The notes beneath the pieces were generated by a model that was not told the DNA's origin, did no database searches, and worked only from the letters and a program-made list of their open reading frames with translations. Made by a program: the position numbers and the translations under genes. A stretch of DNA of 64,000 bases from a virus (lineage: Duplodnaviria > Caudoviricetes): positions 37,071 through 101,070 of the IMG/VR virus record IMGVR_UViG_2889388703_000001; one strand, 5' to 3'. This document shows positions 2,326 to 41,643 of this stretch, in pieces (the stretch's first letter is position 1; each line of letters opens with the position of its first letter).

Positions 2326-3369
2326 AGTTGCTTGTTTTTGAGTTTGTGATTCTGTTTTATCTGATGCCGGCTGCTCCACAGAAGCCTGTTCCTGTGTTCC
2401 CGGCTGCTTTTCTTCCTTGATTCCTGATGGTTTGCTGTCTTCGCGTGAGGCTCCGGACGAATTTCCTTTCTGACTCTGACTCACTCCGGCCAGCTGCTGC
2501 ACGCGGTTCACGCAGAACTTGAAGTCGCCATGACCGTCGACCATGGTACCCACCACATCGCCCGCATCGAAAGTTTTTCCGGTCATCTGGTCATCCGTCA
2601 CTCTGGGACGGCGCTCGCGTACCATCTGCTGGAAATCGGCACAAAGCCGGTTCAGCTCTTCCTTGATGCCGTCATAGTTCCCCTCGGCCGCGTCGCGGTA
2701 CTCCTTGTTCTTATAAGGAGATCCGTCGGCGTAAATCTCGGCGTACCGTTCCTGAGTCACGGTGTTCACATCGCCGTCCTTGTTAGTGAGCATCGCGCAC
2801 ATTGTACCGATACATCCCACCGTGTCGTGCGGATTGGTGAAATACACTTCGTCGCACAGAGCCATCAGCGCATAACCGGCACTGCAGGCCATCCCGTCGA
2901 TGTGACCCACAATCTTCTTTCCTTTTGATCGGGCGTAGTTGAGGGCCATCTCATAGTCGTACTTCGCCATGCTGCTACCGCCCGGGCTGTCCATCTCGAT
3001 AATAAATCCGATGGTATGCGCATCGTCAGAAGCACGCATGATGATGTCCTTGTGTTCCTTGCTTCCGTAGGAACACAGGTCGCCATTACGAAGAATGGGG
3101 CCCTGTACGTCGATAACCGAAATGATGCGGTCGTCTTCCCCTATATCGTTCCATCCGGTTACATCATCGTAATCTCCGATGTAAGTCTTTTCAGCATATC
3201 CGGTACGCGAAGAAAGGAAGTAAGGTCGGTCGGTCCGCTCGTCCGGCTTCTCGTAAGGACGGTGTGAGGCAATGTTGTCAAGAATCGTTCTCCGGTAAGC
3301 ATGCAGAGACTCCGGGTAAAAGTCCCAGAATCGCGTAGACATGATTTCGTGAAATGCTCTTGTTGCCAT
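1795..3369 (-). CDS. S49 (SppA/ClpP-like) head maturation protease fused to coiled-coil scaffold
   Basis: DSPGG and GMACSAGYALMA motifs, VGCIG; C-terminal heptad-rich region; upstream of capsid gene. Confidence 0.85.
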   Translation of the reverse strand: MATRAFHEIMSTRFWDFYPESLHAYRRTILDNIASHRPYEKPDERTDRPYFLSSRTGYAEKTYIGDYDDVTGWNDIGEDDRIISVIDVQGPILRNGDLCSYGSKEHKDIIMRASDDAHTIGFIIEMDSPGGSSMAKYDYEMALNYARSKGKKIVGHIDGMACSAGYALMALCDEVYFTNPHDTVGCIGTMCAMLTNKDGDVNTVTQERYAEIYADGSPYKNKEYRDAAEGNYDGIKEELNRLCADFQQMVRERRPRVTDDQMTGKTFDAGDVVGTMVDGHGDFKFCVNRVQQLAGVSQSQKGNSSGASREDSKPSGIKEEKQPGTQEQASVEQPASDKTESQTQKQATMAKSYPFIQSAAKVNSLVVEENGGFYMVETMADNVEEFVMKAKQTESTLAAKLTEVEQLNATIEQMKKDHAEALANLKAEHEKEVSSLKDAHKKESEDLTAKLNEAQKSIEQKDAEIKELSETAQLEPTPQDPPKDNNGGQESGQFHVQSVCGENMSWGEKAEARRKRDVEISKAR

Positions 3370-3398
3370 TTTCGTTTGATAATTAATTGATTACATCA

Positions 3399-3440
3399 CG
3401 AAATTACGCACGCGAAATGCGGTAATGAAGGACACAAAAA
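3399..3440 (-). promoter_or_regulatory. late promoter motif, copy 1 (head operon)
   Basis: TGTCCTTCA-N19-TAATTTCG on the minus strand. Confidence 0.75.
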
Positions 3441-3743
3441 ATGACTAAATGCGTGAATTACAGAAATATGCGGATGCTCAAACGGATTTTCTCTGCAAAT
3501 AAAAACCTGCTAAGAATGAGCATGTTGTAAAACACACGGAGTTTGTGCGAAAAAAAGAAATTTGCGGCGGACGCAAAGAAATTGAAGAATGTCACAAAGA
3601 AGATAATGAAGATTTACCTGCATGACGAAAGAAAAACGCGCACAAAAAGAAAGGCCCAAAGAAAAAATGCCGCCCCACACACGTATGCAGGAACGGCATT
3701 CCAACGGAAAGAAAAAAGCAATATATATAATAAGGTGTAGATG

Positions 3744-4184
3744 TCAGACCACACGCTGTGCGCCGGTCACGTTGCGGATGGTGAGTGTGCACGAAATCAC
3801 GCCGTCGTCTTCCTCATACTGAAATTCATAACCGTCGCTCACGGCACGCACAAACATTTCACCGTCGCCAAATGTTCTTACAATCAAATGGTTAGTGCTG
3901 TTTTTCAGCGTTTCAAGCTGTAAATAGGTTTCCTGCGTCACCATCTCTACCTCCCAACTCACCGTCACTTCGTAAGAATCGCCGGCCACGCTGGTTTCCG
4001 CGCTCTCCTTCAGGCTCCCCGATTTCGGTTTCATCTGAATGGAAATCTTACGGTCGCCCGACACAGAAAAATCAGGTTTGTCACTTTTCTTCTCAATATT
4101 GAACGGGCGGGAAAACGTAACCGCGTCGTCCGGATAAGCTTCAATGCTGCCTATCAACTCGTAATAATTCTCGCTGCAATTCAT
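3744..4184 (-). CDS. probable virion/tail-completion-type protein
   Basis: 146 aa, beta-rich, CA-rich leader, adjacent to head operon. Confidence 0.5.
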   Translation of the reverse strand: MNCSENYYELIGSIEAYPDDAVTFSRPFNIEKKSDKPDFSVSGDRKISIQMKPKSGSLKESAETSVAGDSYEVTVSWEVEMVTQETYLQLETLKNSTNHLIVRTFGDGEMFVRAVSDGYEFQYEEDDGVISCTLTIRNVTGAQRVV

Positions 4185-4294
4185 GATTTATGTGTTGTTT
4201 TGTGGTTGAAAATGGCGACTGACAAAGTTACTGACAAATCGCACCAACTTTCTTCGTTTCTTTAACTTTTATTTATTGCTATTCATGTATAAAT

Positions 4295-4930
4295 TTATGG
4301 CGTGTATATACAGATTCTTCCGGTTCTCGACTCAAGCTCTTCTTTTCTCACTTTGATGTCAGACTTCATTCTGGATTTGATTCTCCACCAATATCGCATC
4401 ATGCTCTCAAATCTTTTCATGTCTATATCGTACAAAACAATGAAATCAGACATGACATCTTCGGAAGTAACATGTTCGCCCATTCTATTTGCCCGGAAAA
4501 TACAGTCATCATGAAATCTGGCGAAATCATACCAGAACTCACGTTTCAATTCATTCCTTATCTTCTTACTTCCGTTGATATTCAGGTGAAAAAACTTATC
4601 CACTTTCACCTCACCGCTAAATTTGCAGACGCTTTCAGGCATTTCCAACTCCAGGTAATCTTCTTTCTCTTTTTCAGTCAACATTTTAAACTGAGCGGTA
4701 AATAATGATTTCTGAGGTTTCAAATGAAAGGCTACTTCATTATAGGAAAAATCTGTTATACCCGAAAAATCTGCATCTCTGAACAAGTGAGTCTTCATAT
4801 ATACACCCAGAAGGCTGTTCTGAGGAAACCTGACCGGAGTTCCATACTTTATTTCGAAGTATTTCTTATAATAATCACTCACTTTAAGGAAGCATGAGTG
4901 ACGCTGCTCATTCATTGAATTTTTTGGCAT
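4295..4930 (-). CDS. hypothetical protein (possible DNA-binding regulator)
   Basis: ORF 4295..4957; likely ATG at 4930 (MPKNSMNEQ); basic C-terminal helices. Confidence 0.55.
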   Translation of the reverse strand: MPKNSMNEQRHSCFLKVSDYYKKYFEIKYGTPVRFPQNSLLGVYMKTHLFRDADFSGITDFSYNEVAFHLKPQKSLFTAQFKMLTEKEKEDYLELEMPESVCKFSGEVKVDKFFHLNINGSKKIRNELKREFWYDFARFHDDCIFRANRMGEHVTSEDVMSDFIVLYDIDMKRFESMMRYWWRIKSRMKSDIKVRKEELESRTGRICIYTP

Positions 4931-36187: not shown

Positions 36188-36973
36188 ATGAAAAAAATTT
36201 TAACAATGCTTATTGCTTGCGTTCTATTTTTCAGTTGCTCAAAGGACGAAGGCACAGAAGAAACGACACAGAACACGCTATCTGAGAAACTAACGAATGG
36301 ATATTTTATATCCGATGATGATGAAGCAATCAGATTTCGCACAGACGGCTATTTTGAATGGATGGAAAGAAACAGTTACAGGAAATATGATAGGCCTGAA
36401 ATGATGTCTGTTGCAAAATGGAAAATAGATGAAGATGGGAATGTAATAATAGTATGCGATGATGAAACCGGCTCAATGCCAGATGACGCACCTTCATTTA
36501 TATATAACATAAATTTCTCAGGAAACAAGCTTTATTTTACCAACCAGGAAGGTGAAAATAAAGTTATGGAAAACAAAGAAGTAAGCAATCTTCTACAGGA
36601 AGAAATGATAGGTCATACGTTTAAAGCCGGCATAGATTATCAATATGGTGGACAGAAATACAGAGCTGTTCATACCCTTACATTTGACAACGAAATAGGG
36701 ACAGCAGAATGGAGTGTGGAATGGAGTTATAAGGATTCAGGAACAGTTAGAAACACATATTCAGCACAAGGTTATTATTATACAAACATTTCAAGAGATG
36801 AAATATATTTCTACTGGTTTTACGACAATGGTGAAATACCTCCTCACAGCGCACTTTGCCCTCCCGAAAACATGGTCAATATGAGACACGAAATAAGCCC
36901 TTCTGGGGAATGGCTTATTTATTTTGACGGAGGATACACTAACTTTGGAAATGTAAATTTTGTCAGACAATGA
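36188..36973 (+). CDS. lipoprotein (moron; two beta-barrel-like halves)
   Basis: MKK..LFFS-C lipobox followed by SKDE; own TACATTTG box and terminator. Confidence 0.75.
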   Translation: MKKILTMLIACVLFFSCSKDEGTEETTQNTLSEKLTNGYFISDDDEAIRFRTDGYFEWMERNSYRKYDRPEMMSVAKWKIDEDGNVIIVCDDETGSMPDDAPSFIYNINFSGNKLYFTNQEGENKVMENKEVSNLLQEEMIGHTFKAGIDYQYGGQKYRAVHTLTFDNEIGTAEWSVEWSYKDSGTVRNTYSAQGYYYTNISRDEIYFYWFYDNGEIPPHSALCPPENMVNMRHEISPSGEWLIYFDGGYTNFGNVNFVRQ

Positions 36974-36998: not shown

Positions 36999-37037
36999 AA
37001 TGCAGCCGGGGAAGAAACGACAAAACCCGGCTGCATT
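36999..37037. terminator. bidirectional terminator
   Basis: AATGCAGCCGGG...CCCGGCTGCATT flanked by A and T runs. Confidence 0.75.
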
Positions 37038-37069: not shown

Positions 37070-37156
37070 TCATCTTTTTCTCATAATTATATCGCCCACC
37101 ACATTTGCCAGCACATTAGAGCCAAATCCTCTTATCCCGTCAAGTTGAGCTACCAT
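37070..37156 (-). CDS. small peptide, or +1 extension of the upstream gene
   Basis: MVAQLDGIRGFGSNVLANVVGDIIMRKR; frame stays open upstream across the previous stop. Confidence 0.4.
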   Translation of the reverse strand: MVAQLDGIRGFGSNVLANVVGDIIMRKR

Positions 37157-37193
37157 ACGTATAAGGAGGTCCAGCTTTTCTTCTATGCGGCTG

Positions 37194-37742
37194 TTACATG
37201 GCTGCCTGCTCTCCGTACATGCGCTTCTTGAAGTAACGGCGCACCTGAAAGTTCTTGTCCTTGTCTTTCAGGTAGGACACAGCTTTCTTGTAGCATGAAA
37301 GGGCCATCTTTTCGTTCGGCACTTCGGCAGGTGTCTTGTATCCCATGTCTTCAGCGATGCTGTATGCCATGTCGCTGTAAATCATGTTGGCTGTGACACA
37401 AAGTGCATACGAGTTGTACGAAGGTTTTTCTTCGGGAACTCCTCCGAGTTGTTTCACGGCAGACACGAAAGTGTCATGCCCCCAGTGGAATCCTTTCAAC
37501 CCATCTTCGTTGACCATGGTCTTACCGATATTCACGGCCTCTGTTTCCGACAAAAAATTATCCCAGCACATTGCTTCGAGGTGGCTCAGCCAGCTCATAG
37601 CCATTTCCGGGTGCATCTTTGCCATTTCCTTGAAATAATAGGTAGCAGCTTCGCCGAATATTTTCATATTCTTCACGTCCTTGCTGTCCTTCATCTTATC
37701 ATACAGCTCCTCGTAACGGGAGATCATTTGTTCTCTATCCAT
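37194..37742 (-). CDS. helical hypothetical protein of the Cys-rich operon
   Basis: 182 aa; NFLSETEA, YN.YAL.V..NM.YSD, YLKDKD. Confidence 0.75.
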   Translation of the reverse strand: MDREQMISRYEELYDKMKDSKDVKNMKIFGEAATYYFKEMAKMHPEMAMSWLSHLEAMCWDNFLSETEAVNIGKTMVNEDGLKGFHWGHDTFVSAVKQLGGVPEEKPSYNSYALCVTANMIYSDMAYSIAEDMGYKTPAEVPNEKMALSCYKKAVSYLKDKDKNFQVRRYFKKRMYGEQAAM

Positions 37743-37770
37743 ATCTCGATATTTTTAAATTAGTTTCTTC

Positions 37771-37799
37771 AAAAACTTCCCGCCCTCGCGGACGGGAAG
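37771..37799 (-). terminator. intrinsic terminator
   Basis: CTTCCCGTCC-gcga-GGGCGGGAAG-TTTTT. Confidence 0.75.
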
Positions 37800-37891
37800 C
37801 CACTCAAACATTTTTCCTTTTCCTTCGCTTTTTTACGGGTTCATCGGCAGATGCCAGACTGAAAGCGCTAAACGCGGCTGCCTGAACTTCG

Positions 37892-38308
37892 TTAAGCGGG
37901 AAAGGTAGCAGTAATCGTGACCGGGACTGCAATCAGTGCGCCGCAAGCAGAGCAACCGCAACCGTTCTCATTGTAAGAGAATACCTGCGGAACTAAAGTT
38001 GTAGCTACCACACTGGTAGGGGCTGTATTTGCCGCACCGATGAAGGTTACTGTAAACTGTTCGGTCCACTGAATAGTCTTTGCTGCACATCCGTTTTTCG
38101 GAGTGTAGGTCAGAGTTACAGCTGCGTTGATAAGCGCAATGTTCTGCGTGTTGTTGTTTGTGACGCTTGCTACACTGAATACGACGGTAGCAGTAGGTTG
38201 AACGCCGTTGTTCACGCAATAAGCCTGACGCAGTTTCTTAGTGATGTTTACCGTCAGTGGCTGAGCGGTAGCTGTCGGAACTCCAGACAAAGTAATTGAC
38301 TGAATCAT
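37892..38308 (-). CDS. Thr/Ala/Val-rich all-beta Cys protein
   Basis: 138 aa; YC, GC and GCGCSACG motifs; CA-rich leader. Confidence 0.75.
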   Translation of the reverse strand: MIQSITLSGVPTATAQPLTVNITKKLRQAYCVNNGVQPTATVVFSVASVTNNNTQNIALINAAVTLTYTPKNGCAAKTIQWTEQFTVTFIGAANTAPTSVVATTLVPQVFSYNENGCGCSACGALIAVPVTITATFPA

Positions 38309-38369
38309 AGTTGTGTTGTGTTTGTGTTATATATCTTTTACAGGACACCAGGCCGCCTGTATTCGGCAC

Positions 38370-38867
38370 TTATTTCTCTTCTTTTTCTCGTGTTTCATTC
38401 TTTGGTGCAGGCTGCGGTTGTGGGTGCGACGGCTGTGCGGGCTGCTGCGGAACCTTCACCACATATTCCTCGGGTTTCTGATACGGAAGGTTGCAGTCCA
38501 GGTATTTCTTCAGTTCCACCAGGTCATTGCGGTCGAAGGTGAAAAATCCGTCGATTATGGAAAGCTTTCCCTGCTGGATGGCAGAGTCAACATATCCGTG
38601 AGCCAGTTCCGGGATCATGTCGTCCGGAATGCGGGATACAAATCGTTCGAGGAACGGACGGATCATTTTTGTCCCTCCTAAAGATGCCAGCGAATTGATT
38701 TCATTGGAAATCTGCCATCCGGGACCTGCCAGTCCGATTGACTTGAATAACTTCTCCACCGGAAGCATACCGGCAGAAATACCGTTGAGCGTATTGCCCA
38801 TCATAACCGGAATGACCGGCTCACCCCATTTCAGGATGACAGCGGTCAGAATCTGTGCGTTTGTCAT
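38370..38867 (-). CDS. hypothetical protein with Pro/Gln tail
   Basis: 165 aa; CA-rich leader. Confidence 0.75.
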   Translation of the reverse strand: MTNAQILTAVILKWGEPVIPVMMGNTLNGISAGMLPVEKLFKSIGLAGPGWQISNEINSLASLGGTKMIRPFLERFVSRIPDDMIPELAHGYVDSAIQQGKLSIIDGFFTFDRNDLVELKKYLDCNLPYQKPEEYVVKVPQQPAQPSHPQPQPAPKNETREKEEK

Positions 38868-38957
38868 TGTGCTGCGTGTTTGAGTTGTTTGTGTAGAGTA
38901 TGAAAATCATAAGGGAAAGGGGAAGGCCGATGCCCTCCCCCGGATTTCAGCAGTTGA

Positions 38958-39470
38958 TTACTGAGCAGATACACATCCGCAGCAGTCAGACTGACATACA
39001 TTGCTTGACGGAATGTATGTCTTGGTGATAGCCTGCAAAGCGGCGATGCTGTTCTGCATACACTGCAGAGCAGCGGTGTTGGTACCGTTGTAAACGGCCT
39101 GCTGCATGTTGACAGCGGTCTGAGCGTCCTTGTTGGAGCGAACTTCCACTGAAAGTTCCTTGATCTGACCCTGCAAGTCCTTATAGGCTTCCACGATCTT
39201 CTGGTCAGTGTACTTGTCAGCCTTCAGCAAAGCGATTTCTGAATCCTTTGCGTTCAGTTGTTCCACCATGTTCAACTCATAACGGCTTACGGGCATGTTG
39301 TCTGAGCATACGCCTTCTGCGTTCCATCCCCAGCCATTGCGACCCAGGATGTTACCACCGTTGATACCCAAAAATGATGCGATGCCGGCTGCAGCCCCCA
39401 CCGTGTTGAAATTACCTTGTCCCTGGCCGGTTACATTGTAACTCTGGCCATCCATACCTTTGATTGTCAT
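38958..39470 (-). CDS. Gly/Asn-rich coiled-coil protein with CCGC tail
   Basis: Likely start MTIKGMDG (170 aa), downstream of a TACCTTTG box. Confidence 0.75.
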   Translation of the reverse strand: MTIKGMDGQSYNVTGQGQGNFNTVGAAAGIASFLGINGGNILGRNGWGWNAEGVCSDNMPVSRYELNMVEQLNAKDSEIALLKADKYTDQKIVEAYKDLQGQIKELSVEVRSNKDAQTAVNMQQAVYNGTNTAALQCMQNSIAALQAITKTYIPSSNVCQSDCCGCVSAQ

Positions 39471-39515
39471 ACTGTTTTGTGTTTGTGTTGTGTCGTGAAC
39501 TATTTCCCGACATGA

Positions 39516-39602
39516 CAAAGGTACGGACGAAGCATTACTCTGGGAATGAGTTATTTCCTAACCTCTTCCTGATTCTTTCGCAACTTATTCTGAATATTTT
39601 CT
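39516..39602 (-). promoter_or_regulatory. promoter with five 11-bp-phased GAA boxes
   Basis: TACCTTTG at 39523-39516; plus-strand TTC at 39555, 39566, 39577, 39588, 39599. Confidence 0.55.
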
Positions 39603-39840
39603 GTGTGCTGAAACGCTGGTCGAAATTGGTATGAATCTGGTTGACGGCACGCTCCGTCTTTCCGATTCGTGCAGCGATATACGACGGATTCAATCCGCTC
39701 TGAAAAAGGAAATGCACCAGCAGATAGCGTGCATCTACCGTTTCTGTGTCCTTCCTTCCGGAAAGGATCTGTGCGGACGGTATTTCCGTTTCCTCCGATA
39801 CCATGCGGAGGATGGTGTTAAAAATCTCACTCTTACTCAT
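39535..39840 (-). CDS. DnaA domain IV-like HTH regulator
   Basis: IL..VSEETEI...ILSGRK..E.VDARYL......G.....IA..IGKT.RAV. Confidence 0.65.
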   Translation of the reverse strand: MSKSEIFNTILRMVSEETEIPSAQILSGRKDTETVDARYLLVHFLFQSGLNPSYIAARIGKTERAVNQIHTNFDQRFSTQKIFRISCERIRKRLGNNSFPE

Positions 39841-39907
39841 CGTTTCTTTGTTTATCGGGCACGTCTGCCCTGTGTTTTTCTCTTGTGTTTAAAGAAACAA
39901 CCTGCCG

Positions 39908-40462
39908 CTACCATTGCAGCAGGTTGTAATTAAGCGTAACGCCCAGAAACGGTTCTGTCTTCCCTGAAAGCCCTATCCCGTATCCGGCGCTCAGTCCTAT
40001 CCCCCACCTCTTTTTTTTCGGTGCCGGTGCATTTACCACCCCCGTCTGTGTGCGTCGGTAAAACTCTGCCGACACCAGTTGCGGGCGGTACCCTGAAATG
40101 ACTATCCGGTAGTCGTCTGTGCGGTATTCCTTCTCTGTGAGAGGAATAATCACGTCTACGCTGTCTTTCCCTGTAGAAAGCGAATCAGAAACAACCGTAA
40201 CCGTATCCGCTATGCTGTCCGGGATGGAAGCTGACCCGGACAGTTTCTGCGGACGATATACCGGAAGGCGTGCGGTGTCTGTTCCTGCGGGACGTTCTGA
40301 CACGGGAGGAGCAACTGCCGTGTCGCGTATCGTATCTACCCTGACGGGAAGCCATACGGTATCACCCTGTCCAGACTGCGGCGACGCGCATCCACGGAAG
40401 AAAAGCGAAAAGAGGAGCGCGGCCGACAGCAAGCCTACCAGTATCCACGGAAGCTGTTTCAT
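39908..40462 (-). CDS. lysis accessory protein (spanin-like position)
   Basis: N-terminal TM; DT repeats; KKRWGIGLSAGYG C-terminal beta strands; follows the endolysin. Confidence 0.55.
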   Translation of the reverse strand: MKQLPWILVGLLSAALLFSLFFRGCASPQSGQGDTVWLPVRVDTIRDTAVAPPVSERPAGTDTARLPVYRPQKLSGSASIPDSIADTVTVVSDSLSTGKDSVDVIIPLTEKEYRTDDYRIVISGYRPQLVSAEFYRRTQTGVVNAPAPKKKRWGIGLSAGYGIGLSGKTEPFLGVTLNYNLLQW

Positions 40463-41067: not shown

Positions 41068-41643
41068 TTATGCAGAAGCCAGAACCCCGGCCTTTTCAAG
41101 CTCGTCAATCAGCTTGTTCAGTACGGTATGTGCATCTTCCGAACCTGTAGCATCTGTTACATGGGCACCCTGCTTTACAATTCCGGGCTTTGCTGTTGTA
41201 GCATTGGTATATGTGGTGTCTGTCCAGTTTACCGTGACATACGCTTTACCTGCTCCGTCTACTCTTACAGCATAGTTCTTTCCGCTTTCTGAAAATCCGG
41301 TCTGGATTCCTCCCAAAGCAGAGTCGCTGGCTTTCGGGAGCACATAGCTTTCACCTCCTCCGCCACCACCGGCTGCTGCGGTATCCTTGATGACCAATGC
41401 CTTGACTTTTTTCACCTCCACATCGCTCAGAAGCCGTACCTTCATGCCGGCAGGTACATTGATTTCAATTACTGAATTTGTGAAATTCACCGTATCCATT
41501 GCGACGGGTTCCATGGTGTCAATAAACTGGGAGATTGAAAGCCTTCCGCTTTTCACACCCTGAATCTGCACCATTGTACGTCCTTCGGAAGTATATTCGG
41601 CCACATAGCCTTCAGCTCCCTTCTTAAAACTGATTTCGTCCAT
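41068..41643 (-). CDS. head-fibre-like virion protein
   Basis: YVLPKAS.SALGGI, ATT...GIVKQ and LN.LI..L..AGVLA motifs; Gly linker. Confidence 0.55.
   Translation of the reverse strand: MDEISFKKGAEGYVAEYTSEGRTMVQIQGVKSGRLSISQFIDTMEPVAMDTVNFTNSVIEINVPAGMKVRLLSDVEVKKVKALVIKDTAAAGGGGGGESYVLPKASDSALGGIQTGFSESGKNYAVRVDGAGKAYVTVNWTDTTYTNATTAKPGIVKQGAHVTDATGSEDAHTVLNKLIDELEKAGVLASA

Follow-up and report, generated by a model that had tools for sequence, protein, structure and literature searches.

Morons of lambdoid phages, such as bor and lom of lambda and gp15 of HK97, usually comprise a single gene, which is expressed from the prophage, is often absent and often encodes an envelope protein. Two-component spanins, such as Rz/Rz1 of lambda, and signal-anchor-release (SAR) proteins, such as RI of T4 and Lyz of P1, are encoded beside the holin and the endolysin, and releasable anchors are typified by weakly hydrophobic segments with a high content of Gly, Ala and Ser. 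Here, we compare with these systems a six-gene cassette, A to F, that lies directly behind the holin, Amidase_3 endolysin and DUF6808 genes of a gut phage of Bacteroides type. The cassette is found in a 64,000-nt part (the window) of the 101-kb IMG/VR virus record IMGVR_UViG_2889388703_000001.

The cassette shares with morons its organization as a unit with its own promoter and terminator, placed between conserved late-region genes in a slot that is variable between relatives. In contrast to morons, it has six genes and its own regulator, its slot is always filled, and indirect evidence favours late over lysogenic expression. In the case of spanins and SAR proteins, the likeness is found in protein B, which leads the cassette and combines a putative N-terminal membrane segment, a coiled coil and important cysteines with lysis-gene neighbours. 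Nevertheless, B has no lipoprotein partner, a spanin-like DUF6808 protein is already present, B and C are also found in phages of single-membrane Firmicutes, and no sequence relation to these proteins was found. Finally, a cassette led by phrog_16490 proteins occupies the same slot behind DUF6808 in some relatives and shares with the window cassette its bookends, a helix-turn-helix (HTH) gene and a DUF7841 gene. Like B, its lead protein is rich in Gly and Asn and has clustered cysteines, a coiled coil and a hydrophobic stretch, and small beta and helical proteins come next; no homology could, however, be detected between the lead and middle proteins of this cassette and the B, C and D proteins of the window.

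An exchangeable cassette beside the lysis genes

Within the window, the cassette consists of five open reading frames (ORFs) on the minus strand, A to E, and a conserved small ORF, F (Table 1). This bears out a sequence-only reading of the same DNA, which had proposed a self-contained, separately regulated unit of co-oriented genes. The internal terminators that it described were located as stem-loops after B and after D, with others flanking the unit; the three terminator-like stem-loops that were folded (after B, after D and after E/F) have z-scores of −4.1 to −5.4 against shuffled sequences. The cysteine motifs that it pointed out, CQSDCCGC in the tail of B and GCGCSACG in D, are both present in the translations, and its view that no product is a standard head, tail or lysis protein agrees with the searches, which gave zero matches to characterised virion, lysis or enzyme families. 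A gene-neighbourhood survey found the cassette genes together across gut phages and prophages of several phyla. They thus co-occur widely in other phages, and an objection to a self-contained unit based on lack of co-occurrence fails.

The order A-B-C-(D)-E persists among phages of only 30–65% identity, including viral contigs in which B is 38–64% identical. Because the B, C, D and E families comprise hundreds to thousands of clusters and their order is kept in diverged phages, the cassette is far beyond a chance occurrence. In reference genomes, B is found in prophage-like regions of Phocaeicola vulgatus ATCC 8482, Parabacteroides, Prevotella, Oscillospiraceae, Agathobaculum, Bacilli and Spirochaetales; on contigs binned to Kiritimatiellaeota and Lentisphaeria, the only match was to B. 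In the Firmicutes loci that were inspected, a small HTH gene of the GerE/sigma70_r4 type is followed by B, by a C of 104–112 aa and then by DUF7841 or a helical protein of ~100 aa. In the Spirochaetales locus L127 (L-numbers are labels of the compared loci), only B and C′ are present, and both HTH and DUF7841 are missing. When the gene products were inspected, the cassette proved to be adjacent to holin, endolysin or spanin-like genes in almost every architecture. It comes after the lysis genes in the window, L042, L051, L052, L071, L123 and L128, and before them in L045, L068 and L127, and in L133 its neighbours are small membrane-type proteins on one side and terminase genes on the other. 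A DUF7841 gene is also present among the unannotated genes of Bacteroides phage BS162P1.

The exchange of cassettes was examined in a slot test anchored on DUF6808, for which 80 loci were fetched. The scan for B-type cassettes covered L179–L205 (L142–L178, near-identical to the window, were left out), and such a cassette is present in nearly every locus of this set. There are also reduced forms. For instance, L183 has lost A, B and C and retains D and E, and L199–L203 carry a variant B without D. In the sibling clade, L206–L220, the flanks are ~90% identical to those of L214, which bears a B-type cassette, but the insert differs. Among the loci of this clade that are informative, that is, those with at least 4.5 kb downstream (n=10), the slot is filled in 10 of 10, with eight cassettes of the phrog_16490 type, one of the B type and one of a third type. 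The slot thus holds interchangeable cassettes of one architecture, bounded by HTH and DUF7841 genes, and is never empty in these loci.

In L213, which carries the phrog_16490 type, the genes encode an HTH protein, a phrog_16490 protein with a CCC motif, phrog_31654, phrog_28898, a 93-aa Arg/Gly-rich protein, DUF7841 and a 141-aa protein. The lead of this type is a Gly/Asn-rich coiled-coil protein of 321 aa that matches phrog_16490 with E=1.4e-71 and, weakly, phrog_8119 (E=4.6e-4). The HTH that opens the cassette is of the Bac_DnaA_C type, and the DUF7841 protein that closes it is recognised with E=8.4e-32. Some crAss-like phages encode phrog_16490 proteins as well, and in one of them the gene follows a sigma-like gene and is placed between the holin and structural genes; a plaque-forming phage of Bacteroides uniformis has such a protein after a 98-aa 'DnaA' HTH. 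B, C and D of the window constitute a distinct type, which by these comparisons is not homologous to the phrog_16490-type families; phrog_16490 (at E≤10) and phrog_21718 were absent from the genome of this phage. Two candidate homologies, between B and the sibling lead and between D and the sibling beta protein, were rejected by hhalign with a probability of 0.5–0.9%.

The lead protein B

B belongs to a family of at least 1378 clusters at 90% identity, none of which is named or carries a Pfam domain. Its N-terminal half had been described as low complexity in the sequence-only reading, a description that does not hold: this half is a conserved head, in which the motif MxIKGMxGxxYxVTGQGQGN is followed by a hydrophobic Gly/Ala/Ser-rich segment of the glycine-zipper type, with maxima of 1.0–1.8 on the Kyte-Doolittle scale over 19 residues. 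Next, the coiled coil holds the conserved motifs PV(S/T)RYE, YTDQK and NMQQAVYNGTNTA and is followed by an invariant VC. Two cysteines stand out, C159, which is invariant, and C137, which is nearly so. The tails differ between phyla, since the number of cysteines is freely variable in Bacteroidales, whereas the Firmicutes tail is Thr-rich with a single conserved Cys.

B of L199 is 41% identical to B of the window over the first ~100 residues only, and the lead protein of L215, from Bacteroidales, has a head that is 59% identical over 49 aa to that of B from an Agathobaculum prophage, joined to an unrelated rod. These comparisons show that B is modular, with a portable glycine-zipper head on coiled-coil rods that are exchangeable and have cysteine-rich ends. 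Longer proteins into which B is fused were sought without success, B gave no match to phrog_8119 at E≤0.1, and the GenBank phage collection has no annotated isolate with B. In the ESM Atlas, B led to unnamed viral clusters only, and C to nothing.

B probably anchors in a membrane. Because its head is hydrophobic, portable and conserved across phyla and phage types, a membrane or another protein of the cassette is more likely to be the partner of the head than a virion-specific scaffold or capsid. An i-spanin has an N-terminal transmembrane segment and a periplasmic coiled coil; B has a coiled coil and a weakly hydrophobic head, with the Kyte-Doolittle values given above, that is a putative membrane segment. 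A reading of B as a two-component spanin was rejected, because some of its hosts are monoderm and no lipoprotein partner accompanies it; prophages of Oscillospiraceae, Agathobaculum and Bacilli carry the pair B-C, which is thus not restricted to double-membrane hosts. Inspection of C, D, E and F for a lipobox or signal peptide found none. Since C, D and E are without signal peptides, their cysteines are probably cytoplasmic until lysis.

The putative regulator and the expression signals

A is a candidate regulator of the B promoter and would be an HTH protein of the DnaA-domain-IV or LuxR-GerE type. It matches Bac_DnaA_C of Pfam with E=0.0037 and 17.7 bits, which is under the family cut-off of 31.5, and the A-like HTH homologue of the sibling phrog_16490-type cassette reaches 24.4 bits to the same family. 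A profile of 10 A homologues matches the DNA-binding domain of ComA with E=1.2e-4 and DnaA with E=0.084. The HTH that precedes B is A-like in Bacteroidales cassettes and of the GerE/sigma70_r4 type in Firmicutes cassettes. As the A profile matches the LuxR-type ComA domain and, weakly, DnaA, the regulators of both phyla would therefore belong to one broad HTH class.

The sequence-only reading had given the unit its own promoter without the late box of this phage, which is right in part. There is a Bacteroides-type −7 box, TACCTTTG, and a search of the window found no copies of the late box, TGTCCTTCA, on the minus strand upstream of A or B. Nevertheless, TACCTTTG lies between A and B; therefore, the regulator gene A is not transcribed from it. 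It is the only promoter-like element of the cassette, with none upstream of A. The late box itself has 10 copies in the window against 0.43 expected, including a minus-strand copy upstream of the holin, and its sole copy within the cassette is on the plus strand, inside E (37685–37693). Inspection by eye of the sequence in front of the −7 box revealed no −33 TTTG, and a scan for sigma-70 promoters, which is uninformative for Bacteroides, returned 0 sites.

The arrangement in front of B is conserved. A TAnnTTTG box is present upstream of B in 20 of 20 unique upstream regions of the Bacteroidales type, at a distance from the ATG of 45–49 nt in most, 65–78 nt in six and 24 nt in one, the last of which probably reflects a different called start. 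In all 20 of these regions, a hairpin begins 3–6 nt past the −7 box, with a mean minimum free energy of −8.3 kcal/mol against −3.25 kcal/mol for shuffled sequences. Its stems vary among phages, with compensatory changes visible, and its loop is mostly AAUAG; this pattern of varying stems and AAUAG loop right after the −7 box was noted in L042, L044, L050, L051, L052 and L115–L118. The hairpin could be either a stabilising 5′ stem-loop of the mRNA or an operator palindrome of the A protein.

Further signals surround B on its downstream side and in its leader. A strong hairpin lies between B and C in six diverged cassettes (the window, L042, L045, L051, L066 and L067), and those of the latter five are unrelated in sequence, with z-scores of −2.3 to −6.7. 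This suggests that the hairpin after B would let B exceed the downstream products. In addition, among the 99 ORFs of the window, the CA-rich leaders of B, D and C rank 1, 3 and 4, respectively, and such leaders are otherwise found only at two lysis-region genes and two genes beside the head protease. The CA-rich leaders that the sequence-only reading had ascribed to the unit are therefore found near the top of the ranking for B, C and D, while A and E have none. Its proposal of high expression likewise fits B: the conserved promoter box, the 5′ hairpin, the CA-rich leader and the hairpin after B, taken together, make high expression of B a reasonable inference.

Proteins C, D, E and F

Searches of Pfam, PHROGs, NCBIfam and PADLOC gave only sub-threshold matches for A–D, there was no significant PHROG for B, C or D of the window, and PDB profile searches with B, C and E returned only coiled-coil or helical noise. 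Of A–E, only E has a family, DUF7841; for C and D, the confident AlphaFold models have no counterpart among solved folds. The Foldseek comparison that the sequence-only reading had suggested was run for these two models, and neither gave a match above background, whether with Foldseek (D against the PDB and BFVD; C against the PDB, with E>1) or with VIA-align (best Z of 4.5 for C). A literature search for DUF7841, DUF6808, 'decoration protein gp6' and glycine-zipper, coiled-coil or lysis-cassette proteins of this kind found nothing relevant.

C, whose family has 518 representatives at 50% identity, always follows B. Its AlphaFold2 model has a predicted local distance difference test (pLDDT) score of 90.7 and shows a helical domain with a beta hairpin. 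In one 353-aa protein, P0298, a C homologue is apparently interrupted after ~87 residues and continues as a transposase-like sequence, as by an insertion sequence (judged by eye).

D has a family of ~793 members and is optional, being absent from several cassettes; in some, it is replaced by a distant relative together with a small multi-pass membrane protein. Its AlphaFold2 model (pLDDT 81.9; predicted template modelling score 0.74) is a beta sandwich. The top structural matches are sandwiches of the HSP20/alpha-crystallin/CS kind, with Z of 5.2–5.8, below the noise level of the tool of ~8, and 77–84 residues aligned with alpha-crystallin/CS at a root-mean-square deviation of 3.3–4.5 Å. A weak lead comes from the D profile, which matches PDB 23sf, 'decoration protein gp6', with E=0.0077 over 47 of 132 profile positions; 'decoration protein gp6' was not among the fold matches of D. 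Residue 27 of D in the window is Arg, and more than 90% of relatives have at this position the first Cys of a CxxxC pair.

E matches PF25223 (DUF7841) with E=6.6e-9 and 36.5 bits, above the cut-off of 25.2, and reached 37.7 bits in a genome search. Both E and a shorter 157-aa form are DUF7841 proteins, and DUF7841 closes other cassette types too. The small product F has an amphipathic stretch, followed by GFGSNVLANVVGDIIM and a basic end. Its conservation at the protein level reaches upstream of the first ATG (37070–37267, minus strand), and its homologues in L052, L183 and L199 are encoded by a 60-aa ORF that overlaps the end of E in another frame. F of the window may be translated from a non-ATG codon, or ribosomes may enter it from E by frameshifting.

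Possible roles of the cassette

As a tentative explanation, which we regard as possible rather than probable, the unit would be a mobile, self-regulated and very late accessory cassette, activated by A, that acts at the host envelope around the time of lysis, with B docked on the membrane and C–F as its partners. Because the cassette is exchangeable, partly deletable and self-regulated, it would not be a part of the core virion or of the core lysis machinery. Nor would it be a prophage-expressed gene. In this mechanism, the HTH protein A would activate the promoter that immediately follows the A gene. The resulting transcript would open with a stabilising hairpin and a CA-rich leader, and the hairpin after B would let B accumulate far above C–F. 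The head of B, which resembles SAR segments, would then insert into or dock on the cytoplasmic membrane. B might oligomerise through its coiled-coil rod, with the terminal cysteine clusters binding metal or forming a staple, while C, E, the optional D and the peptide F would serve as partners or assembly factors. The steps of this mechanism that we infer are the control exerted by A, the high level of B, targeting to the membrane and a connection with lysis.

Several points weigh against this explanation. Membrane insertion is predicted from composition, and the heads of Bacteroidales B fall below the usual threshold for a transmembrane segment. High expression is deduced from signals alone. 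The adjacency to lysis genes may merely mark the end of the late operon, where cargo collects, and with a holin, an endolysin and a spanin-like protein already encoded by the phage, there is no gap in lysis that the cassette would have to fill. Moreover, structural polymers and virion fibres also typically pair one abundant subunit with minor partners. Finally, L183 keeps D and E without A, B and C, and thus the parts may not act strictly together.

The main rival is a set of virion fibre or decoration proteins, in which B would be a trimeric coiled-coil fibre with its head in the capsid or tail and a cysteine knot at the far end, D a tip or decoration protein, and C and E chaperones. We consider it rather unlikely. 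Its strongest support is the pattern just mentioned, one very abundant subunit with minor partners, and it would also account for the CA-rich leaders that the cassette has in common with genes beside the head protease, for the tail-fibre genes that adjoin the cassette in several loci, and for exchangeable rods on a conserved head, which recall the modularity of tail fibres. Nevertheless, a decoration protein must fit its own capsid, whereas the head of B is conserved across phages of different phyla and sizes; a hydrophobic glycine-zipper would be an unusual fibre anchor, and a dedicated HTH with flanking terminators is unusual for structural genes. The weak profile match of D to 'decoration protein gp6' (47 aa) speaks for a fibre set, but the models gave no fold match to any fibre or decoration protein. 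Similarly, phrog_16490 proteins are labelled 'outer capsid protein/viral fiber' in crAss-like records, although these annotations probably rest on coiled-coil resemblance only. Alternatively, the cassette could be a moron-type determinant of lysogenic conversion or superinfection exclusion that the prophage expresses; B would then be a membrane protein that keeps other phages from entering or alters the cell surface. Its own promoter box and terminators, the replaceable slot between conserved flanks, a lead protein of membrane type and the loss of parts in L183 would all suit such a role, and the existence of non-homologous alternative versions suggests an arms race. The sequence-only reading had held lysogenic conversion equally possible. 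It is instead weakly disfavoured, and we find it distinctly unlikely, since visual inspection revealed no −33 TTTG before the −7 box, and cassettes of a related kind are found in crAss-like phages as well as in a Bacteroides phage that forms plaques. A slot that is never empty also suits a function that the phage itself needs. In addition, BV01, whose host carries a homologous cassette (L117), is reported to be largely repressed in the lysogen, where its repressor is the top transcript (PMC8354205).

The explanation put forward in the sequence-only reading was different again, with B and D forming an extracellular fibre or matrix that is cross-linked by vicinal cysteines after lysis or exposure to oxygen and that protects or aggregates virions. 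Cysteine clusters are indeed conserved at the ends of B and in D, B is probably abundant, the cassette lies beside lysis genes, and products that by inspection lack signal peptides would be freed only by lysis. This idea is, however, very improbable. The number and spacing of the extra cysteines vary freely, the Thr-rich Firmicutes tail has a single conserved Cys, and the conserved hydrophobic head would have no role in such a matrix. The resemblance to spore-coat and appendage proteins that had inspired it was not recovered either: Pfam, NCBIfam, PDB profile and fold searches listed no match to a spore-coat or appendage family or fold, nor to another family of cross-linked polymers, although a family that these resources do not list is not thereby excluded.

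Feature coordinates and neighbouring genes

The features of the cassette and the alternative cassettes are collected in Table 1. In the window, the upstream lysis region encodes the holin (phrog_1299), a 210-aa protein (phrog_38864), a 191-aa protein, the Amidase_3 endolysin and the DUF6808 protein. By its position, the DUF6808 protein is a likely candidate for the spanin. It is encoded at 39908–40462 on the minus strand; its N terminus contains a membrane segment, and its C terminus is a Gly/aromatic stretch with a final Trp, reminiscent of an outer-membrane beta signal. The protein may be a single-chain spanin. A holin-lysin-spanin operon has been described in BV01 (PMC8354205), and a preprint on BV01-like phages (2026) mentions an inner-membrane spanin and does not name the gene (PMC13596623).

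The 191-aa protein inside the lysis cassette (41068–41643, minus strand) has a Gly run and a C-terminus like that of the phi29 head fibre (PF11133, E=1.9e-4), and its gene has the second most CA-rich leader in the window. Just past the cassette, on the plus strand, a convergent gene (36188–36973) encodes a 261-aa lipoprotein, with a match to the BSAP-5i immunity family of NCBIfam (E=0.0057) that is far under the cut-off. In L050, a 400-aa protein that by eye resembles a reverse transcriptase is encoded just upstream of the cassette (3115–4317) and could belong to a diversity-generating retroelement.

Table 1. Coordinates of the cassette genes and signals in the window and of alternative cassettes in the compared loci (positions in other loci are preceded by the locus label)
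Feature	Position	Strand	Description
Gene A	39840-39535	minus	101 aa, stand-alone HTH
Gene B	39470-38958	minus	170 aa from ATG; 186 aa if an upstream TTG is used
Gene C	38867-38370	minus	165 aa, helical, C-terminal beta hairpin, Pro/Gln-rich tail
Gene D	38308-37892	minus	138 aa, predicted all-beta sandwich, GCGCSACG cysteines
Gene E	37742-37194	minus	182 aa, helical, Pfam DUF7841
Small ORF F behind E	37186-37070	minus	28 aa counted from the first ATG at 37156
Stem-loop after the DUF6808 gene, upstream cassette boundary	39897-39927	minus	12-pair stem and T-run; listed, not folded
Bacteroides-type −7 box TACCTTTG	39523-39516	minus	45 nt before the B start codon, between A and B
Conserved stem-loop 5′ of B	39491-39512	minus	fold in the window −6.7 kcal/mol, z −2.75; loop AAUAG
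Stem-loop between B and C, putative attenuator or 3′ stabiliser	38919-38941	minus	intergenic fold −25.5 kcal/mol, z −4.46
Terminator-like stem-loop after D	37774-37801	minus	12-pair stem and U5, −22.9 kcal/mol, z −4.09
Cassette-closing terminator after E/F	36999-37037	minus	12-pair stem and U6, −22.9 kcal/mol, z −5.35
phrog_16490-type cassette	L213:6801-10418; also L207, L208, L209, L216, L218, L219, L220		fills the slot
Third cassette type	L215:7162-8933		lead with Firmicutes-type EYASKGVAG glycine-zipper head; coiled-coil and C-like proteins next

Implications for gut phages

B, C and D represent large families from gut-derived metagenomic and prophage sequences that are without a name, a Pfam domain or a known fold, and the confident models of C and D, which have no solved counterpart, make both proteins worthwhile structural targets. 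The slot test suggests that the cassette is not cargo, but rather provides a function that phages keep in nature while its parts are swapped, a pattern that is usually tied to host interaction. This function should be directly testable in Phocaeicola vulgatus ATCC 8482, the host of BV01, which carries a homologous cassette and for which genetic tools have been published (PMC8354205).

A broader reading, which we consider unlikely, is that gut phages of several phyla share a hitherto unrecognised functional class of polymorphic, self-activated cassettes beside their lysis genes. Each cassette would make an abundant, membrane-docked and cysteine-capped rod on a portable glycine-zipper head, and each phage would keep one version, swapped under diversifying pressure. 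If such a class exists, its products might be, for instance, a lysis-coupled device that is freed on membrane depolarisation and then targets the envelope, cell debris or cells nearby.

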